Source of the DNA: Vulcanimicrobiota bacterium
Lineage (GTDB): Bacteria; Vulcanimicrobiota; Vulcanimicrobiia; Vulcanimicrobiales; Vulcanimicrobiaceae
Reading direction: 5' to 3'
DNA length: 64,000 nucleotides
NCBI GenBank assembly: GCA_963714015.1
Contig: OY970223.1
Location: 96,001-160,000 of the forward strand
A program made the translations under genes and the position numbers. The notes beneath the pieces are model-generated. The model was not told the origin of the DNA, ran no database searches, and was given only the letters and a program-made list of their open reading frames with translations. Positions 16,442 to 32,715 of the stretch are shown in pieces; within the stretch, counting starts at the first letter, position 1; each line of letters begins with the position of its first letter.

Positions 16442-18505
16442 CTAGGCCGCCTGCGGCCCTTGTGCTCCTTCCTTAAAAGGATCATCCTTAACGATTCCGG
16501 CCGGAACGATTCGCACTTCCGAGGGCACCTCGGCATAACTGCAGACGTTCAGACGCAAGCCTGAACGAAGGAAAAAGTCGGCGAGCAACGGGCGAACGGA
16601 TCCCGTGCAGAGCAGCATCCCGTGCCCCTCGGGAAGGGACCGTGCATAGGCCGCAGCTTGGTCGCGGATCCAAAGCGCTGCCTCCGGTTCCACTCCCAGC
16701 GGGCCTGCGTGAAGCGACTCGGCCAGCCGCCGCTCGAGCTCGGGGTCCAGGAGCAGCGGCTCGACCGTCTCGACTCCCCGCCGGCGGAGCTGGGCCGGAA
16801 GCAGCACCTTTCGTGCCGCTTCGGCGAGGTCGCGAGGATCGCGGCTCGTCGCGCAGGCTTCGATCATCGCTTCGAGCACCGCCACCGGGTCGCGCGGCCA
16901 AACGCGCTCTCGAAGAAGCAGGCCGAACGCTTTCTGCACCGCGGCCAGCGGGAGCGCGTCGGTTCCGACTTCTTTTACGACGGTCGGAACGCTGACGCGC
17001 AGATGTTCGAGCAACGTTTGCAATTCTTGCCTACCCAGCAGCACCGCCGCATAGCTGCGGGCGACTTCGGCAAGGTGCGAGCCCGCGACGGAGATCGGAT
17101 CGAATACGAGCGCGCCTTCTTCCAGTGCCGCCTCACGGTGGTCCGGCTCGATCCACTTGGCGTTCAATCCGTAGACAGGCTCGAGCGCGGCAATTCCATC
17201 CAGACGTTCCAGCACCGCGTCGTCGGCGACGGCGAGCATGCGCGTCAGATCCAGCCATCCTTCACCGGCGAGCTCATCGCGAACGCGAATGCCGTAGGTA
17301 TCCGGATCGCGCGCCAGATCGTCGCGCAGTCTCACGCCGGGCAAAACGATACCGATCTCGGCCGCAAGCGCGCGGCGCACTTCACCGACGCGATCGAGCA
17401 GTGCGTCCGCAAGCGGAGGGGCGAGAAGTTGCGCGAGGTTCGCGCCGATTTCGATGCAGACCGCGTCGACGCCGACCAATCCTAACGCGAGTTCCGGACG
17501 GCGAATCGCTTGGCGCTTCGCGAGTTCGCGCTCCTGTCTTGCGCTCTGCAAGACGAACTGATTGCGCTTTTGCGCAAAGTGGGCGGCGGCGAACGCGCAC
17601 GTACCCAAAACGATGAACACCGGCCGAGGCAACGCCGGAACGAGCGCAAGTGCAAAGAGCAGGCCGCCGGCCACCCGCAGGATCTCCGGACGCGCGAAGA
17701 GCTGCGCCGCCAAGTCGGATCCGAGCGAGCCGTCCGAAGCGACGCGAGTGACCATCATGCCCATCGCCGTGGAGATCAAGAACGCGGGCAGCGTCGTGAC
17801 CAGCGCGTTGCCGATGGTAAGCAGGGCATAAGTGCGCAGGGCATCGGACGGCGCCATGCCGTGGTAGACCGCACCCACGATCACACCGCCCGCCAGATTG
17901 AGCGCGACGATGATCAGCGCTGCGATCGCATCGCCCTTCACGAACTTTCCGGCGCCGTCCATTGCGCCGTAAAAATCGGCTTCTCTTTGCACCAATTGGC
18001 GCTTCGCGCGCGCGCCTTCCGCATCGAGAACGCCGGCGTGCACGTCGGCGTCGATGGCCATTTGCTTGCCGGGCATTGCATCGAGCGTGAAGCGCGCGGC
18101 AACCTCGGCGACACGCCCGGAACCGCTCGCGATCACGACGAACTGGATAGTGATGAGGATCGCGAATACGATCAGACCGACGACAAGATTTCCGCGCACG
18201 ACAAACTCGCCGAACGCAGGGATGATCGCGCCGGCGCCTCCGGGTTCGTGACCTTGCGTAAGAATCAAACGCGTTGCGGAAACGTCGAGCGAAAGGCGGA
18301 ACAGCGTTGCCATGAGCAGTGCGGGCGCAAACGCGGAGAACTCCAGTGGTTCCTCTACGGTTACGCTCAGCAGCAAGACGAGCGCCGACGCGAAGACGTT
18401 GACGCCGAGCAGCAAGTCCAATAACGGCGGCGGCAGCGGAACGATCAGGATAGCGACAATCGACAGGAGCACCGCCGCAAAAGTATACGTTGGAATGCGG
18501 TTCAT
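16442..18505 (-). CDS. flhA: Flagellar type III export gate protein FlhA
   Basis: TLFRLSLDVSATRLIL, RVAEVAARFTLDAMPGKQMAIDAD, EADFYGAMDGAGKFVKGDA; 687 aa. Confidence 0.95.
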   Translation of the reverse strand: MNRIPTYTFAAVLLSIVAILIVPLPPPLLDLLLGVNVFASALVLLLSVTVEEPLEFSAFAPALLMATLFRLSLDVSATRLILTQGHEPGGAGAIIPAFGEFVVRGNLVVGLIVFAILITIQFVVIASGSGRVAEVAARFTLDAMPGKQMAIDADVHAGVLDAEGARAKRQLVQREADFYGAMDGAGKFVKGDAIAALIIVALNLAGGVIVGAVYHGMAPSDALRTYALLTIGNALVTTLPAFLISTAMGMMVTRVASDGSLGSDLAAQLFARPEILRVAGGLLFALALVPALPRPVFIVLGTCAFAAAHFAQKRNQFVLQSARQERELAKRQAIRRPELALGLVGVDAVCIEIGANLAQLLAPPLADALLDRVGEVRRALAAEIGIVLPGVRLRDDLARDPDTYGIRVRDELAGEGWLDLTRMLAVADDAVLERLDGIAALEPVYGLNAKWIEPDHREAALEEGALVFDPISVAGSHLAEVARSYAAVLLGRQELQTLLEHLRVSVPTVVKEVGTDALPLAAVQKAFGLLLRERVWPRDPVAVLEAMIEACATSRDPRDLAEAARKVLLPAQLRRRGVETVEPLLLDPELERRLAESLHAGPLGVEPEAALWIRDQAAAYARSLPEGHGMLLCTGSVRPLLADFFLRSGLRLNVCSYAEVPSEVRIVPAGIVKDDPFKEGAQGPQAA

Positions 18506-19497
18506 CGGGCTCCCTGGAGCGCGACGACGATCTCGGCGACGGCGACATACGTTTCGCGCGGAATGAAATCGCCGCTGCGGGCAGCGCCGTAGAGAGCGCG
18601 CGCGAGCGGAACGTCCTCGATAACCGGCACGCCGTGAAGCGCCGCGAGCTCTCTGACGCGCAGCGCGGCTTCATCAGCGGCGCGCACCAGCAGTCGCGGC
18701 ACCGGAACATCGGGAGGACGGTACTCGAGCGCCACTGCGACGTGCGTGGGGTTCACGACGACGAAAGCCGCGTCTTTGACTTTGGCAAGCGAACCGCGCG
18801 AGATCTGACGATGCAGCGATCGCCGGCGCCCGCGCGCGGCCGGGTCGCCGTCGTTCTCCTTTTGGTCGCGTTTGAGCTCTTCGTGCGACATGCGCAGCCG
18901 CTTCCTCCAGCGCTCCAGTTGCACGCCGTAGTCTCCTGCTGCAAAGATCGCGCCGACGACGCATGCGGCGATGCAATTGTGGATCGCACCGGACCAGGCT
19001 GCTTCCCCGACGCTGCGCAGGTCCCCCGAGTGCAGCGCCGCCGCAAAGATTGCACCGAACACGGGGACGATCGCGCAAGCGGACGCGGCGACAGCCACTC
19101 CCGCGCGTGCGACCGTGACGAGCGACTCGCGGGAAAAAGCACGCTTGAGATTCTCCACCGCGTTGAGGCGCTCGGTTTTTATGCTGATGGCGCAAAAGCG
19201 AATGCCTCCGGTTTGAACTGCATTCGCGGCGAGGGCGGCGGCGCCGGCACAAGCCGGCGGCAGAGCGGCGAAGGCGATCGTGCGAACGAATGCGGCGACG
19301 TCGACGATTCCGTGCGCGGCTGAAGTCAGCATTGCGGCCGCCGCGGCGCCCAGTTGCTGAATCGCCCAAGCTGCCGCGGCCAAACCGGTACCGAACGCAA
19401 CCGCTCCGGCCAGTTCGGTCGAGCGAGCGGCGTCGCCCTCGCGCTTGGCCTTCTCCATGCGCGAAGCGGTCGCTTCAAATGGTTTTTCTTCGGCCAC
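18502..19497 (-). CDS. flhB: Export switch protein FlhB
   Basis: EEKPFEATASRMEKAKREG, LRMSHEELKRDQKENDGDP, intact NPTH autocleavage motif. Confidence 0.93.
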   Translation of the reverse strand: MAEEKPFEATASRMEKAKREGDAARSTELAGAVAFGTGLAAAAWAIQQLGAAAAAMLTSAAHGIVDVAAFVRTIAFAALPPACAGAAALAANAVQTGGIRFCAISIKTERLNAVENLKRAFSRESLVTVARAGVAVAASACAIVPVFGAIFAAALHSGDLRSVGEAAWSGAIHNCIAACVVGAIFAAGDYGVQLERWRKRLRMSHEELKRDQKENDGDPAARGRRRSLHRQISRGSLAKVKDAAFVVVNPTHVAVALEYRPPDVPVPRLLVRAADEAALRVRELAALHGVPVIEDVPLARALYGAARSGDFIPRETYVAVAEIVVALQGAR

Positions 19498-19498
19498 G

Positions 19499-20218
19499 TC
19501 AATGCGCCGGCAAAAATGGAATTTGCAGCCACGGCGCGGCGCTCCGATCGAAAACGATCGGAATGCTAAGGAGCGTGGCGCATACGGCCGTGCCGAAGAC
19601 GAGCGGAAATGAAAGCGTGAACGTAGCGAAGCGAGGAATGACGCGCGAGAGCGCCGCCAGCGTCACCTGCACCACAAAGGCGAGTGCGATCGCAGGAGCG
19701 GCTACCAAGAGTGCGGCTTCCACGATCGAAAGCGGCAGCGCCGCGGCAAATTCGTACACGTCGCGCGATGCCGGAAGAACCCCCGGCGGCACGCTTCGAA
19801 AGCTCTGCGCAAACGCGTAGAGGGCAACGCGGTATCCGCCGAGCAAAAAATAGCCTGCGGTGAAGACCATCGACCAGATACGACCGAAGGCGGACGCAGC
19901 GAAGATCTGAACGTTCGGCATGCTGCCGCGGATCCCGACGTAATCGTCGAGCGCGCGCCCGCCGGCATAAGCACCGTCGTAAAGTATCGACGCGCCGATT
20001 CCGATCGCGGCGCCCACGGCAAAATCGCTCGCCGCCGATGCAGCAAGAAGTATTCCGTCAACGTGCCGCGCCGGCTGCACCGCCGGCGTGAGCGCCGCTG
20101 CAAGCAGCAGAGCGAAAGCAGCTCTTACGGCAGACGGCACGCTTGGGTGCGAGAATCCCGGCGCTCGGAAAACGAATCCGGCGCAGCGAGCGAAAACGAG
20201 TAGTGCGGTTGCCGTCAC
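19499..20218 (-). CDS. fliR: Export gate protein FliR
   Basis: LLVFARCAGFVFRAPGFS...VP..VR and LAALSRVIPRF; GTG start overlaps the fliQ stop (GTGA). Confidence 0.88.
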   Translation of the reverse strand: MTATALLVFARCAGFVFRAPGFSHPSVPSAVRAAFALLLAAALTPAVQPARHVDGILLAASAASDFAVGAAIGIGASILYDGAYAGGRALDDYVGIRGSMPNVQIFAASAFGRIWSMVFTAGYFLLGGYRVALYAFAQSFRSVPPGVLPASRDVYEFAAALPLSIVEAALLVAAPAIALAFVVQVTLAALSRVIPRFATFTLSFPLVFGTAVCATLLSIPIVFDRSAAPWLQIPFLPAH

Positions 20219-20481
20219 AGGTGGGTAAGGCTGTCGAGCTGAGTGATGACGTCGTTGAAGAGTCCGGCGCACAGATGCATCCCGAACGATCCCGCCAGCG
20301 CCACCATGATTCCGACGCCGAGCAGCTTGGGCAGCAGCGATATCGTCTGTTCCTGAATCTGGGTAGCCGCCTGAAACACTGCGACTGCGGTGCCGATGAG
20401 GGTTGCAACAGCCAGCACGGGGAGACACAGGAGCGCCGCGTCCATGAGCGTTTCGCGCAAGAGCGCATCGAATGCCGCCAT
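20215..20481 (-). CDS. fliQ: Export gate protein FliQ
   Basis: [17 protein letters not shown]; 88 aa from ATG 20481. Confidence 0.93.
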
Positions 20482-20572
20482 GCCGCCAAGATACGCGTCG
20501 AAGATTTCCGCTTTGCTACCGGTCCGTTGTCGTTGCAAGAGTCGCGCCGCGCTTGGACAAAAGAGGGAGGCG

Positions 20573-21931
20573 ATGAACTGGCGCTTTGTGATTCCGGCAG
20601 TGAGTTTAGCGTTGCTGCCGGCCTGCGGAGGCGGCGGTCCGGCGAGCGTGGGAGTTCCCGGACCCACGCAGACGCCCACGGCAACGATCCCGCCTTCGCC
20701 CTCTCCTGCTCCCGCCGGAAAAATCACGCACGTCGTCATCATCATTCAGGAGAACCGCTCGCCGGATAATCTCTTTCAAGGCCTTCCGGGCGCGGATATC
20801 TCGAGCGTCGGACTCGACTCCAACGGCAACACCGTACCGCTTCAGCCGGTGAGTCTTACGGCACCGTACGATCTGGATCACACGCACACCGGTTTTCTCA
20901 CCGAATTCAACGGCGGCCAAATGAACGGATTCGACAAAGAGAAATCGAGCTGTCCTTTGCATAACTGCAATACGGTCACCGCATACGGTTACGTACCCCG
21001 CTCGGAGACCGAGCCGTACTTCCACATGGCGCAGACTTACACGTTCGCGGATCGCATGTTCCAATCGAATGCGGGGCCGAGCTTCCCGGCACACCAATAT
21101 TTGCTGAGCGGCACCTCCGCGGTTTCGACGGGCAGTAATCTCTACGCTTCGGAAAATCCGGTGTACGCAAACGGCAACAAGGGAGACTGCGACGGCGATC
21201 CCAATTCCCGCGTCACGCTCATCGACATTCTGACCGGAGTCGAAAACGCAACCCAATTCCCGTGCTTCGATCATGCGACGATGTTCGACGTGATGGATCG
21301 AGCGGGCGTATCGTACAAGTACTATACGTCCACGGTCGACGGGCTGTGGGGAGCGCCGGATGCGATATCGCATATCCGGTTCGGTTCCGATTGGGCGCGG
21401 GTGGTCGAGCCGGACAAGCAGATCTTCAGCGACATCACTGCAAATACGCTGCCCGCGGTTTCCTGGGTAATACCGACTGCCGAAGAGAGCGATCACGCCG
21501 ACGGCAATGACGGGACTGGTCCTTCCTGGGTTGCCTCGGTCGTGAATGCCGTCGGTCAGTCGCAATACTGGCCGAACACTGCGATCTTTGTGACGTGGGA
21601 TGATTGGGGCGGATGGTACGATCACGTCAAACCGCAGCAGTTCAATGCGTACGAGCTGGGGTTTCGCGTGCCGCTCATCGTCATCTCACCGTATGCTCGC
21701 CCCGCTTACGTTTCGCACGTGCAGCATGAGTTCGGCAGTATCTTGCATTTCACGGAAGAGCAGCTGGGCCTCTCCTCGCTCGGATTTACCGATGCGCGAG
21801 CCGACGATTTGAAGGACTGCTTCGATTTTTCGCAGCCGCCGCTGGCTTTTCACACGATTCAATCGCGTTTCAAAGCAAGTTACTTCATCCATCTTCCGCC
21901 CTCGAACAAACCGGTCGACACCGATTTTTAA
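20573..21931 (+). CDS. Phosphoesterase / phospholipase C (AcpA-like) lipoprotein
   Basis: GGGAGG RBS, lipobox [44 protein letters not shown]. Confidence 0.9.
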
Positions 21932-21940: not shown

Positions 21941-22850
21941 CTAGGGCGGAGCGCCTTCCAAAACTCTGAAGGCTCGCCACGCCGTTGCGGCAAGCAGCGC
22001 GCTCACGATCGCGCGCGTAGCCGGCGATTTATTGAGCGTGTAAAAATGAATGCCCGGAGCGCCGCGCTGCAGCAGATCCGTGCATTGCAGCGTCGCATAG
22101 GCGACGCCGAGTTCTTCGATGGCCTTGGGCTCGTCGCGTCGGACCTGCAGTTCCGCGAGCAATTTCGGCGGGATGGTGGCACCGCACATTGCGGTAAAAC
22201 GCTGAATCTGTTCGAAGTTCGTGATCGGCATGATCCCGGGCAGAATGGGGACGTGGATGCCGGCGGCGCGGGCGCGATCGACGAACTGGAAGTAGCGATC
22301 ATTTTCGAAAAACAGCTGCGTGATCAAAAATTCGACGCCCGCATCGACCTTGCGCTTGAGGAATTGCAAGTCTTCGTCTAGACTCAGCTGCCTCGATGTG
22401 CTTCTCCGGATAGCACGCTCCGCCGATACAGAAATGGTAATTGCGCTCGATCATCGCGATGAGATCGGAAGCATGCTCGAAGCCGCCGGCGGGCGCTTTG
22501 AAAACGGCCGTGTCCTTCGGCGGGTCGCCGCGCAGGCCAAGCACGTTCTCGATTCCGGCGGCTTCGAGGTCGTTGAGAACGGTGCGCAAATCCGCGCGGG
22601 AGCTGCCGACGCACGTGACGTGAGCCATGACGTTGATGCCGATTTCGTTCTGAATATGTTTCGAGACTTCAATCGTGCGGGCTCGCGTCGAGCCGCCCGC
22701 ACCATAGGTCACCGAGACGAACGCCGGACGAAGTTCGCGTAAAGTTTTCGCAGCCTCAATGAGATGGACGTAAGCTTCGTCCGTGCGCGGCGGAAAGAAT
22801 TCGAATGAGAAAAACGGCCGTTGCCGCGCCAGCGTCTGGCTGATTCGCAT
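21941..22850 (-). CDS. metF: 5,10-methylenetetrahydrofolate reductase; +1 frameshift at ~22382
   Basis: SFEFFPP, SVTYGAGG, LRGDPP, YPEKH in one frame; LKRKVDAG, ITQLFF, GIHFYTLN in the next. Confidence 0.93.
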
Positions 22851-22861: not shown

Positions 22862-23518
22862 TTATCGAAACGTCGAGACGAGGCCTCCGCAGACGAGCGC
22901 CCAGCCGTCGACCATCACGAAGAGCAGCAACTTTGCCGGAAGCGAAATGACCGGCGGGCTAAGCATGAACATGCCCAGACCCATCAAGATGGAAGCGACG
23001 GCGAGGTCGATCGCTACGAACGGCAGATAAAGCGCGAACCCGATAGCGAACGCGTCCCGTAGTTCGCCTACGACGAAGGCCGGTACCAGAACGATCAGCG
23101 GCACGGCTCTCACGGGCTCCGCCGGGCGGCGCGCGACCCGTTCGAACAGGCTCACGTCGCTCAAGCGCGTTTGGCGCAGCATGAAATCGCGCAATGGGGC
23201 GGTCGAGCGGCTCAGAAAAACGGACTGAGAGATCCGGCCTTTGGAATACGGCGTTACGGCATCGGCGGAAATCTGCGCTATCGTCGGCGACATCACCACG
23301 AACGTGAGCGCAAGCGCTAGTCCGGTCAGAACGCTGTTCGGTGGAAGCGCCGCGGCTCCGATCGCCGAACGCACCAGTGAAAGCACTACGACGATCCGCA
23401 CGAACGAGGTGGACATCACCAAGACGAACGGTGCAATCGAGAGCAGCGTGAGCGCGGCTAGAACGTCTAGCGGAAGAGTGGCGTTGGCGTGATTGGCTAT
23501 CTTGAGCAGCGCGTCCAT
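22862..23518 (-). CDS. fliP: Export gate protein FliP
   Basis: TSFVRIVVVLSLVR, PPNSVLTGLAL, YLPFVAIDL, LGMFMLSPPVISLPAKLLLFVMVDGW. Confidence 0.95.
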   Translation of the reverse strand: MDALLKIANHANATLPLDVLAALTLLSIAPFVLVMSTSFVRIVVVLSLVRSAIGAAALPPNSVLTGLALALTFVVMSPTIAQISADAVTPYSKGRISQSVFLSRSTAPLRDFMLRQTRLSDVSLFERVARRPAEPVRAVPLIVLVPAFVVGELRDAFAIGFALYLPFVAIDLAVASILMGLGMFMLSPPVISLPAKLLLFVMVDGWALVCGGLVSTFR

Positions 23519-23551: not shown

Positions 23552-23836
23552 TTAGCCGGGTTTTTGAATCAGTTCCGTAACGCGAACGCCGAAGTTCTCG
23601 TCGATGGCCACGACCTCGCCGCGCGCGACCAATTTGCTGTTCACGAGCAAGTCCACCGGACCGCCGGCCAGACGATCCAACTCGACGATCGAACCCGTGC
23701 CCAGCTTCAAGATCTCGGAGACGGCCATCTTGCATTTGCCGAGTTCCGCCGTAACTTGGAGCGGCACGTTCATAAGCAGATCGAGATTCTGTTGATCCGC
23801 CACCAAGGCGCCGTTTCTTTTTTGTTCAGCCATCAT
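23552..23836 (-). CDS. fliN: C-ring protein FliN (SpoA domain)
   Basis: [44 protein letters not shown]. Confidence 0.95.
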
Positions 23837-23845: not shown

Positions 23846-24634
23846 CTATCCTTGTAACGGGCAGCTTTGGAGACGTATTGCGTGGTGCTCCCCAACGGCG
23901 CCGCACTCGCCGCGTCCGATGACGGACGCTCCGAGCTTGAGCAGACCCGGTTCTCCTATCCTAGTGTTCATCGGCAGGATGACGCCAGGGCGTAAGTCCA
24001 GGAGTGCGGAGGCAAGGATGGTGCCATGGAGTACGTCGACCGTGAGCTCGACCAGGACGTCGGCAAGATTCTCGGGGGCCAAGCGACCGGATGGCGCCGC
24101 GGCAGGGTCGCGGGCCACCGCCACGCCGATTCTCAGCGGCGCCGGCTGCTCGACGAGCATTTCAAAATATGTGGTAAAGCCGCCGATGGAATCGATCGGC
24201 TCAGGTGCGGTCGGGTTTGGTCCGCACACGGCCGCTAAGGAGCCCGCGAGAGCCCTCAGCGCGCGGACGGTGACCTCGCCTTCGAGGCGGGATAGCGGCC
24301 GATCGCCGGCAGGCTGCTCGCCGAAAGCGGCGGCTGCGAACGCCAGCGCGTCGGCGGGCCGCAAGACCAAAGCGGCGTCGTTTACGGATCCGCGGACGGC
24401 GTAAAGGTATGCGTCCGCGGAGATTGCGGCCCAAGCGTCCGGGTCCGGAACGAGCGGTTCGAGCAGCCGCAGCGTCACCGGAGTTTTCAAAAGGGAGCAA
24501 AGCGCTTCTCGAACGCCGTTCGCTACGACGCAGGCTGCACTGACCGGAAGCGAGGATCGCCGCTCGAATACGGCGCGGCGAACACCGCTCTCGCGTTCGT
24601 CGGGCAATGCGTTTTCGAACGCGAGAAACCTCAT
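23846..24634 (-). CDS. fliM: Divergent FliM-like C-ring protein lacking the N-terminal CheY-binding peptide
   Basis: Lies before fliN; middle-domain-like AALVLRPADALAFAAAAFG...RPLSRLEGEV; SpoA-like C-terminus (LADVLVELTV...LLDLRPGVILPM...GRGECG). Confidence 0.7.
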   Translation of the reverse strand: MRFLAFENALPDERESGVRRAVFERRSSLPVSAACVVANGVREALCSLLKTPVTLRLLEPLVPDPDAWAAISADAYLYAVRGSVNDAALVLRPADALAFAAAAFGEQPAGDRPLSRLEGEVTVRALRALAGSLAAVCGPNPTAPEPIDSIGGFTTYFEMLVEQPAPLRIGVAVARDPAAAPSGRLAPENLADVLVELTVDVLHGTILASALLDLRPGVILPMNTRIGEPGLLKLGASVIGRGECGAVGEHHAIRLQSCPLQG

Positions 24635-25347
24635 TTCAAAAGGTCCATCGCAATTTTTTCGGCGCCTGCGCCGGCAACGTTAGCCGCGCGAATCGCATCC
24701 AGCGCAATGTAAGCTTCTTGCAGGCGATCCAAGCCCAGATCGATATCGATCGTTCCGGCAGCTTTGTATCCGGGCGCGAGTTTGCCGAAAGCACTGTCCC
24801 CCGGCTTACCGGTGTGCGGAAAGATTCCGGCCGGCGCCGCAAGATGCCGCGTATCGACGCGCTGAAGCTTGGTTCCGGGAGCGAAGCGCGCCAGAGCGAT
24901 TCGCCCGACGGAAATCCTTTGAAGCTCGGCTCGTCCCGTCCGCGGATCGACGGCGCGACGATCGTAGACAACGGTGCCGTCGGCGTCGACCCGTGCATTT
25001 ATGCCCACACCCAACGCGACGTCCACCGGATCGGCATGCAGCGCTTCCAGCGCCGCACCCTCGCCGGAATATCCAAGCACGGCATTTCCGTTCGAGTCGA
25101 CCAATTTTCCGTCATGAAAAGCGAACGTGCCGTCTTGCGTGAACAGCGTCTTGCCGTTTTCGCTCGCAACGACGAAGTAACTCTGCTCCGGAGCAGTCGC
25201 GCAAAGCCCGTCTGTCGCGGGCAACGGGCGCGCCGCCCGCGCAACGTCGCTCATTTCCGGGACCGCGCCGGGTACATACGCCCGAAGTACGTCTCGCTCG
25301 CGCGCCGCAATTTCGTCAATTGCGCGAGCAGTCGCTGCCGTCAGCAT
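24631..25347 (-). CDS. Divergent FlgF/FlgG-like rod/hook-family axial protein
   Basis: SYFVVASENGKTLFTQDGTFAFHDGKLVDSNGNAVLG matches the FlgEFG 'FF.V....YTRDG.F......LV...G..VLG' pattern; VGRIALARF; C-terminal D0 helix. ATG 25347, 238 aa. Confidence 0.75.
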   Translation of the reverse strand: MLTAATARAIDEIAARERDVLRAYVPGAVPEMSDVARAARPLPATDGLCATAPEQSYFVVASENGKTLFTQDGTFAFHDGKLVDSNGNAVLGYSGEGAALEALHADPVDVALGVGINARVDADGTVVYDRRAVDPRTGRAELQRISVGRIALARFAPGTKLQRVDTRHLAAPAGIFPHTGKPGDSAFGKLAPGYKAAGTIDIDLGLDRLQEAYIALDAIRAANVAGAGAEKIAMDLLK

Positions 25348-25946: not shown

Positions 25947-27575
25947 TTATTGAAACATTTCCCCGGGGTCTTGCACGCGCTGACGATAACGCCCGTCGTC
26001 GAACGCTGCGGATTTGAGCGCATACATCTTGGAATTGGCTTCATCGAACGTGATGACGAAGTTTTTCAGTACGCCCATGCCGATGTTCCCTGCGTCGAAG
26101 CGGTCCGCGAAAGCGCCGCGATCGCTCATGATGATGTTCGCGTAGCGGTTATAGAAATGGAACGGCCCGAAATCGAGTTCGTCGATGTAGCCGAAGGACG
26201 CCCGTGCAGAACCGCCGACTCCGTAGTCGTTAGCGGCGCGTTCGCGATCTTCCAGGGGGACGACGTACGGATGCGCTTGCATGAAAGGCGAGTACAGCAG
26301 CAACTCCGTGCTGTTTCCGGTGTCTACGACGAACGTTCCATCAATGCGGTTCACCGATCCGTCCAACTCGACCAGTTGGCGGTCGTTGTCGATGCTGAAG
26401 GCGCTGCCCTTGGGATCCAGCGTGCCGGGTTTTCCGAACGTCATGGTGCGAGCGACCGGATCGATCGTCACCTCCGCGGAGGCGAAGAACGGATAGCCGA
26501 GCACGCCGTCCGCGCCGGTGGCAGCGCGCAGGTCCAAAACCGATACGGAATGGACCGGGAGAGCAGCGCCCCCGATCTGAATCGAATTCAGAGCGGCAAA
26601 ACCCAGGCCGCCGACCCGTTTGGCGCCCGCGACCTCCAAATGGCCCTGGTACTGCAATCCTTGCTGCGCAGCAACTTGGGTATCCAATGCAATCATCTGC
26701 GCGCCGGTGTCGACGAGAAACCGGTAATCGCGCGTTCCGACGCGGACCTGTACGAAAAAGTGCCCCTGCTCCTCGTGCAGCGGAACGGTGACGGGTTTGT
26801 CGGTTTGAATCACCGTGGAGACCGGAAGCGCGAACACCTTAGGATCGACCGCGCCGTCGATTACGACGTCTTTGATCAAGTGCGTGAGATCGTACACGCG
26901 ATCGCCGTTGGAGTCGACCTCGCGCATTGCAACCAGCGTGCCGCGAATTACCTGATAGTCGTAATAGTCTTCGGTGGATACGCCGTCATCTTCGTCGTAC
27001 GCGACGCGATCGATCATGAAGGTCTTTGCGTCCAGATACAATGTCTCGGGTTGACCGCCGGGCGGCGCAACCTCGATGGCGTACGTCGATCGTCCGTCGG
27101 GCAGCGTGGCTGCGTTTTTGAGCGTATCGTATCGAGGCGTCGAAACGAAAGACTCGGAATCCACGAAATCTTCGGTCAGCTGCCGTTTCGCCAGAATTCC
27201 GTGCAGTTCGCGCACGTCACCCGTTTCATTTATCGCGTACTCCCGATCGTTCAAGCGCAATGAGGCCGTCGTGTGTGAGACGGTTTCGTCGTCCTCACGC
27301 GCGTCGCTGCCCATCGACCACCGCCGGAAAGAACCGGTGAGATCGCCGGCAACGATAGGCCCCGAGATCTCGATGGATCGGGCGGGATGCAGCGGCAGCG
27401 CGGCCATTGCGGCGCGCCGATCTTGCAGAATGGTTTGTAAAGAAAGCGTCTGTGCGCGCGCGGGCGCAAAGGTCAGTGCGGCGATCGCCACGGCAAGCAG
27501 CGCCGTAGCGCTACGGAGTTTTGTACTTTGCGTAGCTTTGCATGACGTTCTGAACGTAATTCTGCGTTTCGGCAT
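25947..27575 (-). CDS. Secreted tandem retropepsin-like aspartyl protease (start uncertain)
   Basis: Signal-like ATALLAVAIAALTFAPARA; two catalytic motifs FLVDTGA and FVVDTGN; DGVLGYPFF and GNIGMGVL. Confidence 0.85.
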   Translation of the reverse strand: MPKRRITFRTSCKATQSTKLRSATALLAVAIAALTFAPARAQTLSLQTILQDRRAAMAALPLHPARSIEISGPIVAGDLTGSFRRWSMGSDAREDDETVSHTTASLRLNDREYAINETGDVRELHGILAKRQLTEDFVDSESFVSTPRYDTLKNAATLPDGRSTYAIEVAPPGGQPETLYLDAKTFMIDRVAYDEDDGVSTEDYYDYQVIRGTLVAMREVDSNGDRVYDLTHLIKDVVIDGAVDPKVFALPVSTVIQTDKPVTVPLHEEQGHFFVQVRVGTRDYRFLVDTGAQMIALDTQVAAQQGLQYQGHLEVAGAKRVGGLGFAALNSIQIGGAALPVHSVSVLDLRAATGADGVLGYPFFASAEVTIDPVARTMTFGKPGTLDPKGSAFSIDNDRQLVELDGSVNRIDGTFVVDTGNSTELLLYSPFMQAHPYVVPLEDRERAANDYGVGGSARASFGYIDELDFGPFHFYNRYANIIMSDRGAFADRFDAGNIGMGVLKNFVITFDEANSKMYALKSAAFDDGRYRQRVQDPGEMFQ

Positions 27576-28098
27576 AAGGCGGAACTCCGCCATACTTCTC
27601 CACGGCCCCAGGCCCTGCATTGTACGCCGCGACCGCGAGAGGCACATCGCCGTGGAAGCGATCGAGCAAGCCGCGCAGGTAACGCGTGCCGCCCGAGACG
27701 TTTTGGGCCGGGTCATAGGCGTTGGACACACCGAGCTCCGCCGCAGTGGACGGCTCGAGCTGCATCAATCCTTGGGCACCGGTCTTCGAAGTGGCGTTGG
27801 CGTCGAATCCGGATTCGTTCGCGATAATCGCCTTGACCAGTGCGGGATCGACTCCCCAAGCGGCGGCATTTGCGCCCGCGAGCTGCGCGATCTGCGGCGG
27901 CGGTACGATTGCCGGCACCTGCGCGGACGACTCTTGCTGCTGAGCCGTCAGCACCGGATCTTGTTGATTGTCCATCGCCGTGGACACGAGCTGCGCGAAA
28001 GATGAAGACGGGCTCGGGCCGGCAACGCCCGGGTCGATCTGCTGCGTGATCTCGGAGATTCGCCGCGTTACGGCGGCAAGGTCGGCGGTGATGTCCAT
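27511..28098 (-). CDS. SLT-family lytic transglycosylase
   Basis: AIIANESGF, GAQGLMQL, AVAAYNAGPG, PPYAETQNYV; no Sec signal. Confidence 0.93.
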   Translation of the reverse strand: MDITADLAAVTRRISEITQQIDPGVAGPSPSSSFAQLVSTAMDNQQDPVLTAQQQESSAQVPAIVPPPQIAQLAGANAAAWGVDPALVKAIIANESGFDANATSKTGAQGLMQLEPSTAAELGVSNAYDPAQNVSGGTRYLRGLLDRFHGDVPLAVAAYNAGPGAVEKYGGVPPYAETQNYVQNVMQSYAKYKTP

Positions 28099-28102
28099 AC
28101 GT

Positions 28103-29335: not shown

Positions 29336-29811
29336 GCAAAATCCCGCAGAATCGACTGTAAGCGAACGCCGAGCGTCGCTTCGATCGATCCGCTGCGCAG
29401 TTCGAGGACCGCATCGCCGGGCAGCAGCGCGCCGTCTGCGACGACGGGTAGACCGCAGTTTACCAGCGTTGCTTCACTCGGATGCAGACGGACGCGCAAC
29501 GGATCGTCGTTGAAGAAACGCGCCGAAAGACGTTGCACGATTGCATCTATGTCGACGGACGTTATCTGCAGCTCCCGGGCTAGAACTTCAGCGGCCAAAT
29601 CCGCGCAAATCTGCCGCACAGCATGGTCTACGCCTTCGGCAACGGCGGCTTTGAACAAACGCACGCCGCTAAGCAAAGCTGCGGTCTCTCCGGCATCGCC
29701 TTCATCCTCACGTGGAGGTGGCGCCTGCGGGAACGGTTCAGTTTGAGCGATGCCGGGCGCCGGTTCCCGCGGCCTGACCATCGAGGCCAGCGAGCGAAAC
29801 GTTTCAGGCAT
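29332..29811 (-). CDS. fliH: Short FliH-like ATPase stator
   Basis: Between fliF/G and fliI; LRVRLHP...ADGALLPGDAVLELRSGSIEATL; 159 aa. Confidence 0.75.
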   Translation of the reverse strand: MPETFRSLASMVRPREPAPGIAQTEPFPQAPPPREDEGDAGETAALLSGVRLFKAAVAEGVDHAVRQICADLAAEVLARELQITSVDIDAIVQRLSARFFNDDPLRVRLHPSEATLVNCGLPVVADGALLPGDAVLELRSGSIEATLGVRLQSILRDFA

Positions 29812-31270
29812 GCGTTATGAAGCGCTCGGCATCGGGCAGTAGCGGCGAACCAGGACGATGCATGCGCCGAATGATCGCGCTGCGTTCGTGCTCCGGATAC
29901 ATTTCCAGTACGGCGGCAGCCGTCGCTGCGGGAAGGGCGCTGATGATGGCCGCGGCCGTATGCGGCGGCTCGTTTTCCAGCGATGCGCGTACGCCGGCCG
30001 GCGGAATGTCGCGCGATTTCTCCGCAGCGCTTGCGATTGCGGCGCGTTGACCCATCGCCTGCAGCGCCGCCGACAGCGGGCGGGAAGCATAACGCATTCC
30101 GATTGCAGCCCCGGCTGCGAGAATGAGCGCAGGCAAGACCGGAACGACGGCGCCGTACGCCAGCCACCAGCCGTCTTTTCTTGCCAAAGGCGTTCGAGTG
30201 AAATTCATCGCCTGCACTTCCAAGACGTCGCCGCGGCGCGGATCGATGCCGAGGGTGGCGGCTGCCAGAGCGCGGACGGGGACGATGTCCGCGATCTGCG
30301 CAGAGTCGACGAAGACCGCAGCAGTTATCCTCGCAATGCGTCCTCCTTGCGCGGATGTGGTCTCTTCACTCGTATCGCTTCCGCGATCGAGGTCCTGAGC
30401 GGATTTCTCGTAGCGCTTGCCGCCGTCGAAATAGTGCTCGTCTTGAGTGTTTGCCGCGATCGGCAGCGCCGATAAGGGAACGCGCCGAACGTTTCTTCGC
30501 ATCACGCTGCTGCGGTCGTATTCGATGTGCACGCGAACCAATGCCGCTCCCGCTCCAAGCGTCGAATCCAAGGCGCTCTGCAGCGAATGCTGCAAATCCG
30601 AGGCGCCGGCGTCCGATGCTCCTTCCTCCAGCGCAACGCCGCGATCGTCCACGATCTTCACGTTGCGCGGATCGAGTCCGGCAACGCTCGCCGCAACGAA
30701 CGAGCGAACACCGCCGACCGCTTGCGCGGAAAGCCGCGCACCGGGCTGCAGCGTCAATCGCACGCTGGCCGTCGCCGCGCTCGACGCGTCGTCGGCATAA
30801 TACCCTTCCCGCGCCGGAGCGATAATGACGCGCGCATCCTGGATGCCTTGGATTCCGCGCAGACTCAGTTCGATGTCGCCGGCCAAACCGTCACGCGTCT
30901 GGGCGTCAATCACTGATTGTGGGGTTAGCGCGCCCAGTTTCCCAAGAACGTCACTGGTGCCTTGCACATGCGCATGGGGCGTACCCGCCATAGACAGCTT
31001 CAGCAAAAGATCGCTGCGGCGCGCGCCGTCGATGAGCACGTTGTCGGCGGAAGGCGTGAAGGGAACGTTCCAACTCGCTAGGCGTTCTTCGACTTCACCG
31101 AGCTGGTCCGGCTGCAGGGCGCCGGCGAAGAGCGGAACGCGCTGCGAATGCGTTAGAACTCCGGCTGCGATGCTGACGAAGACCAAGGCGATGCAAGCTG
31201 CGGCCGTCAGCTTTCGCGTGCGCGCAGGCAGGGTGTTCCAGCGCGCGAAAAGCGCGGCCGCATCGGTCAC
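29804..31270 (-). CDS. fliF: MS-ring protein FliF fused to a FliG middle-domain-like segment
   Basis: TM1, ring-building motifs (DIELSLRGIQGIQDARVII, TASVRLTL, VAASVAGLDPRNVKIVDDRG), RITAAVFVD, RRGDVLEV, TM2, then LENEPPHTAAAIISALPAATAAAVLEMYPEHERSAIIRRM. Confidence 0.85.
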   Translation of the reverse strand: MTDAAALFARWNTLPARTRKLTAAACIALVFVSIAAGVLTHSQRVPLFAGALQPDQLGEVEERLASWNVPFTPSADNVLIDGARRSDLLLKLSMAGTPHAHVQGTSDVLGKLGALTPQSVIDAQTRDGLAGDIELSLRGIQGIQDARVIIAPAREGYYADDASSAATASVRLTLQPGARLSAQAVGGVRSFVAASVAGLDPRNVKIVDDRGVALEEGASDAGASDLQHSLQSALDSTLGAGAALVRVHIEYDRSSVMRRNVRRVPLSALPIAANTQDEHYFDGGKRYEKSAQDLDRGSDTSEETTSAQGGRIARITAAVFVDSAQIADIVPVRALAAATLGIDPRRGDVLEVQAMNFTRTPLARKDGWWLAYGAVVPVLPALILAAGAAIGMRYASRPLSAALQAMGQRAAIASAAEKSRDIPPAGVRASLENEPPHTAAAIISALPAATAAAVLEMYPEHERSAIIRRMHRPGSPLLPDAERFITHA

Positions 31271-31274
31271 CTCG

Positions 31275-31544
31275 TCATACCTGCATGTTCAGTATCGACG
31301 TCAATGCCTGCGCGGTGCGTCCGGCGGCGGCGCTCGCAACCGACAGTGCGACGTCTGCGCGGGCACGCTCGTACACTGCGGTTTGAAGATCGCCGGCACC
31401 CGACGCGAATGCATCTTCGGCGCCCTGCGCCGTCGTGAAAACCGATCCGAGATCATCGAGCAGTTTGCCGAATGCACTTGCGTCCGAGGCGTGCAGAGGA
31501 GCAGCCGTTTCCGGAGCATCGGGGAGCAGATTTTCGATCCTCAT
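31275..31544 (-). CDS. fliE: Basal-body protein FliE (reads in frame with upstream flgC in this sequence)
   Basis: SAFGKLLDD, GAGDLQTAVYERARADVAL and the terminal ILNMQV motif; directly upstream of fliF. Confidence 0.85.
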   Translation of the reverse strand: MRIENLLPDAPETAAPLHASDASAFGKLLDDLGSVFTTAQGAEDAFASGAGDLQTAVYERARADVALSVASAAAGRTAQALTSILNMQV

Positions 31545-31877
31545 CAGCTTGCCCATGTCGATCGTGCGCTCGGCCAGGCGTTTTCCGGCGTCGAAAACCG
31601 AAGCGTTCGCTTCGTATGCCCGCGTGGCATTGAGCACCGCCACCATCTCAGTGAGAACGTCGACGCTGGACCCGCGATCGACGTGCGCGCCCGCGTAGAC
31701 CACTTGCGGTGATCGGCCGTCGGCTTGCACGAGCCGAAAATCCGCAATCAAACGCGGATAAGAGCCTTTGGGTCCCGCCGCTTCGGCTGCCGCGACGTTC
31801 CGCGCCTCCACGTCCAATGCGGCGCGTTGTGCGTCCATTCCGCTTGCGGCGGTCGCAAGCAAACCGAGGCTATCCAT
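31541..31877 (-). CDS. flgC: Short proximal rod protein FlgC
   Basis: AASGMDAQRAALDVEARNVA and VDVLTEMVAVLNATRAYEANASVF; about 111 aa; no stop before fliE as sequenced. Confidence 0.85.
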
Positions 31878-31967
31878 TGCGCCGACCGCGATACGCTGCT
31901 ACATTCAACATAGCGTTTAGGGTAGTGCGCGAATATGGCAAACAAAGATCGCAATGATTTCCGGAGT

Positions 31968-32492
31968 ATGACCTCGACGTCGATCTTATTCTTAATGGGT
32001 GTGCTGCTTCTGGGCTGTAACGTGCAGCACCGTGGAGTCACGGGGCAAGCGACACCTGAGAAGCGGAGTGTCATCGCGCCGAACGGCGTGCATTGCACCG
32101 GATTCATGGGATCGAAGCCGGGTTACAGTTGTTATGAAAGAATTGCACGCCGGCCCGGTGTGCGGTGCAGCGGTTATGTGGATCCGGGAAGCAATGCGGC
32201 GTTACCACCCCCGCCCGCCATCTACAGCGTACGCGATATTGGAAAGGCGGGCGTCCCGAGGTTAACACCAACGCAATTGCGCAGCGTAAGGATGATCGAG
32301 GGCGCATTCGGCAGCGCCCACCTTCAGTTCGTGCTGCTGCCCGAGCGGGCCGAGTTGGTAGTATTCAACGCCACTCGAGGCGTATGCGCGAATTGGGCGG
32401 GCGGTTATCCGTTGCTGAATGACAATCCGGACGGCCGGCGCTTCTATGAGCCCGGCGACAATCCATACACCACGCTTACGGCGCCCGACTAG
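31968..32492 (+). CDS. Cys-rich hypothetical lipoprotein, opposite strand between flgB and flgC
   Basis: GGAG then ATG 31968; lipobox LLGC; four further Cys. Confidence 0.65.
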   Translation: MTSTSILFLMGVLLLGCNVQHRGVTGQATPEKRSVIAPNGVHCTGFMGSKPGYSCYERIARRPGVRCSGYVDPGSNAALPPPPAIYSVRDIGKAGVPRLTPTQLRSVRMIEGAFGSAHLQFVLLPERAELVVFNATRGVCANWAGGYPLLNDNPDGRRFYEPGDNPYTTLTAPD

Positions 32493-32499
32493 ACGGCCT

Positions 32500-32715
32500 T
32501 CATCGCGCAGCGCTCTTGATCTCCGCAAGCCGCGCGTGCACCGCATTCAGGAGCGCCTCGGTGAAAACGGCTCTTTCAGCGACTTGCGCCATCGCCTGGT
32601 CCGTGCGCGGGCCGCCGAACGGCGTTTGCGCGCGAGCCGTCCGGGAAGCGGCGCCCGCAAGATCGTCTTTAGCGGTGCTCAAGGCGCTCTCGAGCGTATT
32701 TGCAATGTCGAACAT
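32500..32715 (-). CDS. flgB: Minimal FlgB-like proximal rod protein (71 aa)
   Basis: MFDIANTLESAL...ARAQTP resembles the FlgB N-helix/ANADTP; TDQAMAQVAERAVFTEALLNAVHARLAEIKSAAR resembles the C-terminal helix; upstream of flgC. Confidence 0.6.
   Translation of the reverse strand: MFDIANTLESALSTAKDDLAGAASRTARAQTPFGGPRTDQAMAQVAERAVFTEALLNAVHARLAEIKSAAR

Follow-up and report, generated by a model that had tools for sequence, protein, structure and literature searches.

A probable non-rotary export machine derived from the flagellum in a Vulcanimicrobiota bacterium

The gene cluster at positions 16442-32715 of the window (the whole stretch of 64,000 nucleotides of Vulcanimicrobiota DNA that was analysed) probably encodes a type III machine of flagellar origin that is self-contained and has lost both rotation and filament assembly. 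Its best reading is an independent, non-rotary export machine resembling a hook-basal body, "export machine" being the function that we infer for this reduced system. Genes were assigned by Pfam and NCBIfam scans of the window ORFs (Table 1), and the scans confirmed that the motor-less flagellar-type export cluster of the original prediction is real: all export motifs named there were found (NPTH in FlhB, GPPGAGKS and GERGRE in FliI, RFTLDAMPGKQM in FlhA), and the ORFs scanned contained no stator, FliG_C, flagellin, FlgH/I or che gene. The predicted gene list was incomplete, with metF and two opposite-strand genes within the span missed. Its reading as an export machine was supported, but the system has more than a gate, since it also comprises a complete set of rod parts, a small hook-like protein and a ruler for length, and the cluster is not complete, with two rod genes (FlgF/G) encoded outside the window. 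No published description of the reduced system was found in the literature searched, and this shrunken, separate and well-conserved system of the lineage may represent a new case of flagellar repurposing.

Table 1 Genes of the reduced cluster with their window coordinates
Feature	Coordinates	Strand	Evidence
FlhA, export gate, 687 aa	16442..18505	-	FHIPEP 662.7 bits (Pfam)
FlhB, switch protein with NPTH site	18502..19497	-	Bac_export_2 252.5 bits
FliR	19499..20215	-	Bac_export_1 105.5 bits; start set by alignment with relatives
FliQ, 88 aa	20215..20481	-	Bac_export_3 68.5 bits
Phosphoesterase gene, insertion outside the machine	20390..21931	+	PF04185 180 bits
metF (MTHFR), conserved passenger, frameshift-split here	21941..22850	-	Two MTHFR-matching ORFs
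FliP	22862..23518	-	PF00813 240 bits; TIGR01103 228 bits, above its cut-off
FliN, 94 aa, SpoA domain	23552..23836	-	FliMN_C 87.6 bits; TIGR02480 101.8 bits, above cut-off
FliM-like/SctQ-like protein, 262 aa	23846..24634	-	FliMN_C at residues 189-256
Mini hook/distal-rod-type axial protein, 238 aa, D0+D1 only	24631..25347	-	LlgE_F_G_D1
Mini FliK/SctP-type ruler, 186 aa	25341..25901	-	Alignment architecture and fold matches
Exported retropepsin-like aspartic protease, accessory	25947..27575	-	Asp_protease_2 58 bits
SLT lytic transglycosylase	27511..28098	-	SLT 105 bits
FliI ATPase, 410 aa	28103..29335	-	ATP-synt_ab 198 bits
FliH, 159 aa	29332..29811	-	PF02108 31.7 bits
FliF MS-ring protein with ~60-aa FliG middle (ARM_M-like) segment	29804..31270	-	YscJ_FliF, YscJ_FliF_C, FliG_M
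FliE, ~90 aa, in frame with FlgC here	31275..31547	-	PF02049 21.9 bits, slightly below cut-off
FlgC, 110 aa, shortened proximal rod protein	31548..31877	-	Flg_bbr_C 31 bits
Lipoprotein-like gene, insertion outside the machine	31935..32492	+	Lipobox-like N-terminus; no Pfam match
71-aa two-helix protein in FlgB position	32500..32715	-	Conservation and position

In the NCBIfam scan FlhA scored 626 bits with the FlhA model and 492 bits with the SctV model, both below the equivalog cut-offs, and its orthologs in relatives, which filled over 100 protein clusters, shared 70-81% identity. FliI reached 347 bits with the SctN model and 332 bits with the FliI model, both under cut-off, with Walker A and GERGRE kept, and FlhB and FliI both scored slightly better with the SctU/SctN models than with the FlhB/FliI models. 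FliQ-equivalent ORFs of relatives had 88-94 aa. The FlhB cleavage motif of the relatives was NPxH, with NPTH in 15/30 and E, A, Q, H or D as x in the other 15/30, and judging by this varying third residue the switch may perhaps work differently.

The FlhB and FliI scores would suit a member of the NF-T3SS (injectisome, Sct) family, perhaps one like the needle-less systems of Myxococcales, and so would the best fold match of the ruler, which was an injectisome SctP domain. Constraining the reduced clade to sit beside the NF-T3SS side also gave trees that were not rejected (AU p 0.61 and 0.40). However, in the FlhA tree and in the 4-protein tree alike, a 100* branch set the NF-T3SS rows (a Chlamydiales MAG, Archangium and four Sct systems, with two PVC rows added in the FlhA tree) together on one side, apart from the reduced clade, and the reduced system grouped with flagellar, not injectisome, homologs. 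Its gene content is flagellar as well, with FliF instead of SctJ/SctD, plus FliE, FlgC, FlgF/G and an FlgE-type protein, and no secretin was found at the locus or anywhere in G097, a near-complete genome that has only the reduced system. We consider membership of this family very improbable, and the distinctness from Sct injectisomes that had been proposed agrees with the trees and with a locus lacking a secretin. Nor did the trees show the reduced system as a recent duplicate of the FlhA that belongs to the lineage itself.

The FliG_M match lies at FliF residues 429-472 (Pfam), and this fusion has neither FliG_N nor FliG_C. The C-terminal segment EPPHxAAAIISALP...ER.AI..RM of FliF was kept in all 29 f1/f2 tails compared, where an exact search pattern matched 24/30, and was divergent in f3 (our sample for distribution was 101 genomes of the class, in families f1, f2 and f3, and f3 is a second order-level lineage). 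Full-length FliF orthologs were present in 65/71 f1, 1/1 f2 and 9/9 f3 genomes. A PDB profile search with the FliM-like protein gave FliM/FliN/YscQ-C over residues 189-259 only; Pfam showed no PF02154 FliM match, and the C-terminal FliMN_C/SpoA domain was the only one recognised.

FlgC and FliE form one ORF here (31275-31877), in which FlgC with its C-terminal rod motif is followed by FliE in frame, because the window has one extra base compared with relatives, where FliE is a separate ORF of 86-96 aa. At this junction the relatives have an overlap of the form ATGA, TTGA or GTGA. FlgC matched TIGR01395 with 49.9 bits over model positions 97-137. What had been called flgB is a conserved 71-aa ORF, found in 27/30 f1/f2 loci tabulated and adjoining flgC in relatives, but the name FlgB comes from its position and a weak language-model lead (Atlas, FlgB family, score 0.85); its sequence matched nothing in Pfam or PDB, and hhalign gave no support for FlgB either. 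The FlgF/FlgG pair lies ~180 kb from the cluster in the window's genome, and orthologs of its FlgG-like gene occur in 97/101 genomes. Each of G097, G036, G011 and G071 has exactly three Flg_bbr_C matches, which are the cluster FlgC and a tandem FlgF/FlgG pair at another place in the genome.

The 238-aa axial protein belongs to a family of 186 proteins, named from Eremiobacterota only. Its profile had FlgE as the best PDB match (1.1e-17), and its AF2 model (pLDDT 90) gave FlgG/FlgF/FlgE chains as top Foldseek matches (TM ~0.7). The 186-aa protein had no Pfam or PDB sequence match; its alignment showed a conserved N-terminus, a variable linker and a T3S4-like C-terminal domain, the last modelled by AF2 with pLDDT ~90. 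The best two Foldseek matches of this protein were the PscP SS domain 5cuk and the FliK C-terminal domain 2rrl, and a wide VIA-align search again placed 5cuk and 2rrl at the top (Z 8.7 and 8.4; next 6.8). The SLT enzyme matched the flagellar-assembly transglycosylase NF047373 weakly and showed no recognisable Sec signal when its translation was judged by eye, and we infer a FlgJ-like role for it. In the aspartic protease, an N-terminal hydrophobic signal-like stretch was read by eye from the translation. This protease had no match in f3 loci or in 13/30 f1/f2 loci, 12 of which were genus-g4 loci (one locus among the 13, L019, matches a partial ORF only), and similar proteins occur in other phyla.

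Two plus-strand genes (20390-21931 and 31935-32492) break up the minus-strand cluster, and the first of them, the phosphoesterase gene, was not found at the corresponding place in relatives' clusters. Between fliP and fliQ, metF is represented by two ORFs matching MTHFR positions 1-160 and 163-285, and it is a single ORF of ~299 aa in 28/28 family-f1 loci spanning the interval and absent from f2 and f3. The earlier statement that there are no internal stops is right for the secretion genes; metF is split by a frameshift in the assembly.

Homolog names point to the Eremiobacterota/Vulcanimicrobiota, and within them to the Baltobacteraceae, for this genome. An ordinary flagellar system with chemotaxis is encoded in full at 1.93-1.98 Mb of it, where it has an export gate of its own; FlgH and FlgI lie at 2.84 Mb, and flagellin genes at 2.84 Mb and 3.46 Mb. 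The window cluster is therefore a second system and does not serve as the gate for a flagellum with scattered genes. That possibility had been raised with the original prediction, and FliG, stators, hook and flagellin do exist elsewhere, but with a canonical FliF/FliI/FliPQR/FlhB/FlhA set; since the motility parts sit beside this second set, they do not depend on the reduced gate. Most proteins of the reduced system are much shorter than the canonical copies of the same genome (FlgE-type, 238 vs 592 aa; FliK-type, 186 vs 492 aa; FlgC, 110 vs 147 aa).

Dual flagellar systems are well known, and the cluster could belong to a second (dual or lateral-type) rotating flagellum that relies on the canonical system for its FliG, stators, hook and flagellin, parts which are all present elsewhere in the window's genome. 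This reading is contradicted by the distribution among the 101 genomes, and we regard it as extremely unlikely. FHIPEP was detected in 94/101 genomes and canonical-type FlhA in 27, all of which also had the reduced type, while 66 genomes (37 f1 and 29 f3) had the reduced or f3 type alone and no canonical FlhA. Flagellin exceeded the cut-off in 26/101 genomes, every one a carrier of canonical FlhA (26/27); the count was 0/66 for reduced-only and 0/32 for f3 genomes. Genus g4 had seven weak flagellin matches, all below cut-off, and the one examined was a HlyD-like coiled coil. FliG_C, MotB_plug, FlgI or FlgH was present in 0/4 of the near-complete reduced-only genomes G097, G036, G011 and G071. 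The sole cultured member of the phylum is diderm, with no flagella seen and the flagellin gene reported absent (PMC9758169), yet fliN is included in its gene table (PMC9758169 supplement).

The shortened proteins, with scores below equivalog cut-offs, could also point to a relic, a flagellar cluster that was once duplicated and is now decaying with no present function. Loss was indeed seen: no FHIPEP was found in 4/68 other f1 and f2 genomes (G043, G081, G089 and G107), G124 had a 25-bit remnant only, and G083 and G123 had partial genes, so the system is dispensable in some lineages; the assembly also has the metF frameshifts and the extra base at the FlgC/FliE junction. However, the clusters of 29 further f1/f2 genomes have intact ORFs in the same order, the system is present in f3, where SecD follows FlhA too, and catalytic and cleavage motifs are retained. 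Analysis of 12 genus-g4 genomes, in which the canonical flagellum is absent, gave median dN/dS of 0.08-0.33 for all 16 core genes, values which are rough because dS was above 1, and all reduced-system genes are under purifying selection. Together with the FlhA identity given above, these results contradict a relic, which we find scarcely credible, and the relaxed selection or pseudogenisation considered beforehand was not borne out by synteny and dN/dS.

In the proposed working of the machine, FliF would form the inner-membrane ring, as its family suggests, and the FliM-binding FliG middle segment fused to its C-terminus would be a direct tether for the cytoplasmic FliM-like/FliN (SpoA) platform, with the FliG C-domain that generates torque left out. 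Substrates would pass via FliH and FliI to the FliPQR-FlhB-FlhA gate, and the gate would export FliE, the 71-aa protein, FlgC and the distant FlgF/FlgG pair to make the rod. Peptidoglycan would be opened by the signal-less SLT enzyme, and the 238-aa D0-D1 protein may lengthen the rod into a short hook-like or needle-like tube. The mini FliK/SctP ruler would then read the tube length and flip FlhB (NPxH) to a second substrate class, presumably non-flagellar cargo. Because there is no L/P ring or secretin, the tube may stop in the periplasm, or it may cross the outer membrane otherwise.

A non-secretory structure should be weighed here, in which a periplasmic rod/hook stub serves as an envelope-spanning anchor, scaffold or sensor and export serves its own assembly only. 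All substrates recognised are the system's own axial proteins, ruler and SLT enzyme, Pfam found no effector-like or chaperone genes in the cluster, and the missing L/P ring or secretin would leave no way of reaching outside. In known systems FliK/FlhB and SctP/SctU serve the change to a second substrate class, and the ruler and FlhB switch are held under purifying selection here, which argues against such a stub, but weakly, because the switch could merely stop tube growth. We judge the stub unlikely, and prefer the non-rotary export machine.

The proposed export machine resembles the canonical flagellar hook-basal body and fT3SS in that it groups with flagellar homologs on trees, but its FliG is ~60 residues fused to FliF, and it has no FliG_C, MotAB, FlgH/I, flagellin, FlgK/L-type protein, FlgD or FliJ, nor FliO (Pfam, window ORFs). 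With Sct injectisomes it shares a non-rotary T3SS, SpoA platform, ATPase complex, T3S4 ruler, autocleaving switch protein and dedicated lytic transglycosylase; in contrast, no SctC, SctD, SctJ, SctF, tip or translocon gene was recognised (Pfam; secretin search), and it is outside the NF-T3SS clade. Buchnera has retained FliG and the L/P rings. Filament-less basal bodies are made by Buchnera aphidicola, and transport is suspected as their function (PMC8109811). Basal-body and export genes are retained without a filament in both cases, but the Buchnera system is the sole one of a shrinking endosymbiont genome, whereas ours is a divergent paralog in free-living soil bacteria, beside a full flagellum in 27/101 genomes and alone in 66/101. 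The Myxococcales "Myxo" NF-T3SS, or needle-less T3SS*, has been put forward as a protein translocator and an intermediate in flagellum exaptation (PMC3459982; PMC12075869). It is likewise a T3SS-family machine without motility parts or secretin, but its Archangium homologs, unlike the reduced clade, fall together with Sct systems, and the Eremiobacterial system retains flagellar rod, hook-type, FliE and FliF parts. A hat-shaped inner-membrane structure, another proposed non-motility structure that needs the flagellar export core (bioRxiv 10.1101/2021.09.03.458937), uses ordinary fT3SS genes without a dedicated gene cluster, and does not explain the paralogous cluster. Lysobacter enzymogenes OH11 is a non-flagellated soil bacterium whose expressed FT3SS genes export non-flagellar proteins (PMC7688988), the type of function proposed for the reduced system. 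The Lysobacter system is a remnant of an ordinary flagellar regulon after functional fliC loss, whereas the gene set of the reduced system is miniaturised, separate and lineage-wide, and includes a FliF-FliG fusion.

The window (G000:C1:96001-160000) has a G+C content of 62%, and its genome (G000) is a single contig of 3.56 Mb with an estimated completeness of 89.6%, though it is one contig. Pfam and NCBIfam scans covered the minus-strand ORFs from 16.4 to 32.9 kb of the window, and the cluster is listed in transcription order in the table. The export gate FliPQR-FlhB-FlhA was present together with FliH/FliI (Pfam, NCBIfam and motif check), and the functional motifs that the original prediction had described in the export proteins were confirmed in the window translations. 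The rod proteins FliE and FlgC are also encoded in the cluster, while a FlgF/FlgG pair is encoded elsewhere and FlgB was assigned by position only. Most cluster proteins fell below the NCBI equivalog cut-offs of flagellar and Sct models alike, with NCBIfam scores of 626 bits for FlhA vs 492 for SctV, 189 for FlhB vs 219 for SctU, and 332 for FliI vs 347 for SctN. Elsewhere the window contained housekeeping genes and no further motility genes, and no MotA/MotB stators were found among the scanned window ORFs.

Genes of the reduced cluster and of its immediate surroundings in the window, in transcription order of the cluster
Feature	Position in window	Strand	Remark
71-aa ORF	32500-32715	-	first in transcription order
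Lipoprotein-like ORF	31935-32492	+	breaks up cluster, G000 only
FlgC + FliE	31275-31877	-	single frame in G000; Pfam/NCBIfam
FliF	29804-31270	-	FliG_M match at residues 429-472; Pfam/NCBIfam
FliH		-	Pfam/NCBIfam
FliI		-	Pfam/NCBIfam
SLT transglycosylase		-	Pfam/NCBIfam
Aspartic protease		-	Pfam/NCBIfam
186-aa protein		-	no Pfam/NCBIfam match
FlgE/F/G-D1 protein		-	
FliMN_C protein		-	C-terminal FliMN_C domain alone; Pfam/NCBIfam
FliN		-	Pfam/NCBIfam
FliP		-	Pfam/NCBIfam
metF (methylenetetrahydrofolate reductase)	21941-22850	-	two frames; between fliP and fliQ
Phosphoesterase	20390-21931	+	breaks up cluster, G000 only
FliQ		-	Pfam/NCBIfam
FliR		-	Pfam/NCBIfam
FlhB		-	Pfam/NCBIfam
FlhA		-	cluster end; Pfam/NCBIfam
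SecD, SecF			next after FlhA

The splitting of metF was traced to a 1-nt frameshift in the G000 assembly. One extra base at 31530-31570 of the window, compared with seven relatives, puts FlgC and FliE into one frame and gives an ORF of 200 aa; each of the seven relatives has two separate genes that share ATGA, TTGA or GTGA at the overlap. Single-base features of G000, including the FlgC-FliE fusion, may be errors. The position of metF between fliP and fliQ was shared by all 28 loci covering this interval in the family of the window genome (f1), and metF was not there in f2 and f3, the further families of the same class. Two other genes, thyA and folA, lie 13 kb from metF within the window.

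Whole-genome search of G000 found a full-length FliG at 1.95 Mb and matches to the flagellin family at 2.84 and 3.46 Mb, and paralogs of FliF, FliI, FliN, FliP, FliQ, FliR and FlhB were found at 1.95-1.98 Mb together with a second FHIPEP gene, the canonical flhA (G000:C1:1979310-1981275). We put 65 ORFs of this canonical region through Pfam and obtained switch, motor and export components (FliF, FliG, FliI, FliJ, FliM, FliN/Y, FliO, FliP, FliR, FlhA, MotA and MotB), hook and ruler proteins (FlgD, a 592-aa FlgE and FliK), and proteins of regulation and chemotaxis (CheR, CheB, CheC, CheA, CheW, a sigma factor and a PilZ protein). FlgI and FlgH were located at 2.84 Mb, the canonical FlgF/G genes at 2.844 Mb, and the canonical FlgB, FlgC and FliE at 2.90 Mb. 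The cluster in the window could have been the export gate of an ordinary flagellum with its other genes dispersed over the genome, but this was excluded, because the canonical flagellum was found with its own FlhA. Since the canonical parts have their own gate elsewhere, the cluster in the window is a second, paralogous system. The canonical flhA is broken across two frames, and one flagellin gene (G000:C1:2835720-2836131) is likewise broken, which reflects either indels in the assembly or an ordinary flagellum that is beginning to decay. The canonical region also contains large inserted STAND-like genes, with adenylate/guanylate-cyclase, NB-ARC/AAA and TPR parts (L010:10271-13003 and L011:8811-11606 of the fetched loci), and a pair resembling them is located at the end of the window (60619-63371).

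The distribution of the two systems was then determined in 101 sampled genomes of the class, of which 94 had FHIPEP. FlhA types were set by the FHIPEP score, with approximately 720-880 bits for canonical, 690-726 for f3 and 595-663 for reduced FlhA. Canonical FlhA was present in 26 genomes plus the split gene of G000, and all 27 also had the reduced type. The reduced or f3 type alone was found in 37 f1 and 29 f3 genomes, here called reduced-only. Flagellin was over cut-off in 26/101 genomes, all of them within the 27 with canonical FlhA, and Flagellin_N was over cut-off in none of the 66 reduced-only genomes and none of the 32 f3 genomes. Three of the genomes in the f3 tallies (G128, G159 and G166) carry an unpublished flag, and the conclusions are independent of these three. 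Seven genomes of g4, a genus without canonical flagellum, gave Flagellin_N matches of 21-23 bits; the one examined, in G097, lay in an HlyD-like coiled-coil efflux adaptor, and all seven were rejected as flagellins. Full-length orthologs of the FliF-FliG fusion were found in 65/71 f1, 1/1 f2 and 9/9 f3 genomes. Matches in the phylum's other classes covered no more than the first ~200-400 residues of the fusion, with ~26-35% identity and in frames of mostly ~480-620 aa, and they are read as ordinary FliF.

FHIPEP was not found in the f1 genomes G043, G081, G089 and G107 of the class sample, it was a 25-bit remnant in G124, and G083 and G123 had partial genes. The FlgG-like gene was also missing from G043 and G089, and G081 and G107 retained it together with its FlgF partner. 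The losses of FHIPEP in G043, G089, G081, G107 and G124 look like independent and recent events. One genome of 1.9 Mb in 70 contigs (G077) had reduced-type FliF and FlhA twice, one canonical FlhA and no flagellin, which may mean a mixed bin or a genuine duplication.

The closest FlhA homologs had 70-81% identity, and those with names were called Candidatus Baltobacteraceae, Vulcanimicrobiaceae, Cybelea, Tumulicola, Rubrimentiphilum or Eremiobacteraeota. In a set of 1.84 billion representative proteins, the reduced lineage made up no more than a few 50%-identity clusters, and beyond these clusters the next full-length matches fell to 48% identity for the f3 type and then to 43%. P0123, the nearest outside FlhA, gave no second host lineage; its sole close relative among 185,579 species genomes was on a 5-kb contig of an uncultured rumen bacterium. 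An f3-type FlhA, P0124, carries the NCBI label 'Candidatus Binatus sp.' and in the tree adjoins an Eremiobacterial sequence of f3; a wrong bin or a wrong name may explain the label. In the description of the sole cultured member of the phylum, a diderm envelope and type IV pili are reported, and neither flagella nor a flagellin gene, and in its supplementary gene table fliN is the only entry under 'flagell' (PMC9758169). A published description of the reduced system was not found in searchable full texts, and subscription journals or supplements may hold one.

To see which flagellar parts are missing where the reduced system stands alone, four near-complete reduced-only genomes were examined, namely G097, G036 and G011 (one contig each) and G071. 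FliG_C (PF01706), MotB_plug (the profile used for the stator search there), FlgI and FlgH were each found in 0/4, and the only FliG piece in the reduced system was a FliG_M-like segment of ~44-60 aa joined to FliF. FliJ was over cut-off only in the canonical cluster of G000 and at an unlinked site in G011 (G011:C1:1307529-1307870, 47 bits), a genome without canonical flagellum, where the match is distant from the reduced cluster. The secretin profile PF00263 had no match in G097 (2.5 Mb, 97% completeness), no secretin was found near the reduced cluster in G036, G011 and G071, and the cluster ORFs had no Pfam or NCBIfam match to SctJ/SctD rings, the SctF needle or the translocon.

Flg_bbr_C matched exactly three proteins in each of the four genomes, namely the cluster-encoded FlgC and a tandem pair at a separate site, and therefore there are no FlgK- or FlgE-size proteins. 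In G000, the tandem pair lies outside the window at C1:308618-309343 (241 aa) and 309340-310005 (221 aa; L016:8618-10005), and both proteins consist of Flg_bb_rod, D1 and Flg_bbr_C and have no flagellar neighbour genes. Orthologs of the 241-aa protein were present in 97/101 class genomes, with full-length matches of 52-66% identity in f1/f2 and 41-49% in f3, and a second match of 41-45% identity appeared in genomes having the canonical flagellum. On this evidence, the FlgF/FlgG pair was counted as part of the reduced system. In several one-contig genomes the stand-alone pair was located ~80-100 kb from the cluster. The reduced system is not a second set with its own filament, hook and motor, which is what defines a dual flagellar system.

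Individual proteins were then analyzed. The C-terminal segment of FliF, EPPHxAAAIISALPAATAAAVLELYPxxEREAIVRRMQR, was kept across f1 and f2, and judged by eye we take it to resemble the FliM-binding EHPQR region of FliG_M. The 238-aa axial protein is one of 186 members of a family whose named proteins come from this phylum only. Its profile matched Salmonella FlgE best in the PDB (1.1e-17), followed by FlgG (2e-9), and its AF2 model (pLDDT 90.2) had helices at 2-24 and 202-237, a beta domain and no D2, and superposed on FlgG/FlgF/FlgE chains of rod-hook cryo-EM structures with TM ~0.65-0.73 (Foldseek). The profile and the model place it in the FlgE/FlgG axial family, with terminal D0 helices and a D1 beta domain, and it may act as hook or as distal rod.

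In alignment A5 the 186-aa protein is conserved at its N-terminus and in its C-terminal domain, and the linker joining the two is variable and rich in Ala/Arg/Pro/Ser; in its model pLDDT was low at residues 1-15 and 44-69 and ~90 in the C-terminal domain. By sequence nothing significant was obtained with Pfam, a PDB profile search or hhalign against the canonical FliK of the genome, so the FliK-like identification came from fold searches alone. The top two Foldseek hits of the C-terminal domain were 5cuk (PscP SS domain) and 2rrl (FliK C-terminal domain), with probability 1.00 each, and an independent, wide VIA-align search of 48,161 chains put the same two first (Z 8.7 and 8.4; third 6.8). 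The predicted fold thus points to a mini FliK/SctP ruler with the T3S4 fold, as which the protein was called. A candidate ruler in f3 (L026:4389-4862) aligned poorly with 20% identity, and no f3 ruler is claimed.

The third residue of the FlhB/SctU cleavage motif is nearly always T. In the relatives of the window FlhB (L017-L061), N, P and H of the motif were kept in 30/30, and the third residue was T in half of them (15/30), with E, A, Q, H or D in the remaining 15. For the 71-aa protein, nothing useful came from hhalign against canonical FlgB, from a PDB profile search or from a Pfam scan of 8 members with E up to 10, and Atlas gave the only lead, to an FlgB family (score 0.85). This two-helix protein might also be needle-like.

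The cluster was also compared in 29 further f1/f2 genomes, which gave 30 loci since the cluster of G011 was split over two, and the same genes in the same order were found throughout. The protease was unmatched in 13/30 loci, 12 of which were g4 loci. In f3 the system is divided between two loci, one of which has FlgC, FliE, FliF, FliH, FliI and SLT. Pairwise Nei-Gojobori dN/dS among 12 g4 genomes had medians from 0.077 (FlgC) to 0.329 (ruler) over all 16 genes; dS was ~1.0-1.5 among these genomes, which means that the ratios are rough, yet they are far under 1.

A FlhA tree with named references (41 rows, LG+G4, quick search) was divided by a branch with support 100, with four Sct references, a Chlamydiales MAG, two PVC rows and Archangium on one side, and the reduced clade on the opposite side together with the flagellar rows. 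The f1 + f2 reduced clade (100) was sister to f3 (100), and the canonical FlhA of the lineage was placed apart, with a Thermoleophilia row (96). An origin of the reduced FlhA by recent duplication of the lineage's canonical gene was rejected by the AU test, in which the reduced and canonical sequences were held as one clade (delta lnL 51.9, p 0.019). Concatenation of FliP, FliR, FlhB and FlhA (31 taxa, 1470 columns, LG+G4 quick) again gave a monophyletic non-flagellar T3SS (100) with Archangium basal, and the reduced clade (100, stem 0.47) was one of six lineages at the unresolved base of the flagellar side. A smaller, quick PMSF concatenated tree gave three clades. A FliI tree rooted with F1 ATPase subunits put the reduced clade outside the flagellar and Sct ATPases (84-92, long branches), and this placement was set aside as probable long-branch attraction. 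The expectation that the system is distinct from Sct injectisomes was upheld, as the non-flagellar side was cut off by the branch with support 100 in both trees and no secretin was near the cluster. We conclude that the reduced system is a distinct, old and fast-evolving lineage and neither an injectisome nor a recent in-lineage duplicate.

In another reading, the reduced system is a surviving offshoot of the lineage leading from flagellum to injectisome, which lost motor and filament and kept the rod, hook-type tube, FliK and a FliF with a FliG remnant; it would then be a stage before the Myxococcales 'intermediate'. This is compatible with the trees, because the reduced clade held with the non-flagellar side was not rejected (FlhA: AU p 0.61 and 9.2 lnL units above the free quick search, a slightly better likelihood; four proteins: cost 5.0 lnL, AU p 0.40). 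We consider this origin unlikely.

Such a lineage would be a natural minimal hook-basal body, with a FliF carrying a FliM-docking FliG piece, a D0/D1-only hook protein and a 186-aa ruler, and this compactness would make it attractive for structural work. It would also point to a further secretion or envelope function in Eremiobacterota. For the type III export core, just two major uses are well established, rotating flagella and injectisomes, and filament-less flagellar remnants occur in endosymbionts and a few non-flagellated bacteria. The system described here is distinct, miniaturised and motor-less, and is kept under selection across a whole class of soil bacteria that are abundant and for the most part uncultured; in this class it is often the sole type III machine and stands beside an ordinary flagellum in 27/101 genomes. 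If this is true, it is an independent case of a repurposed flagellum, which bears on the origin of injectisomes.
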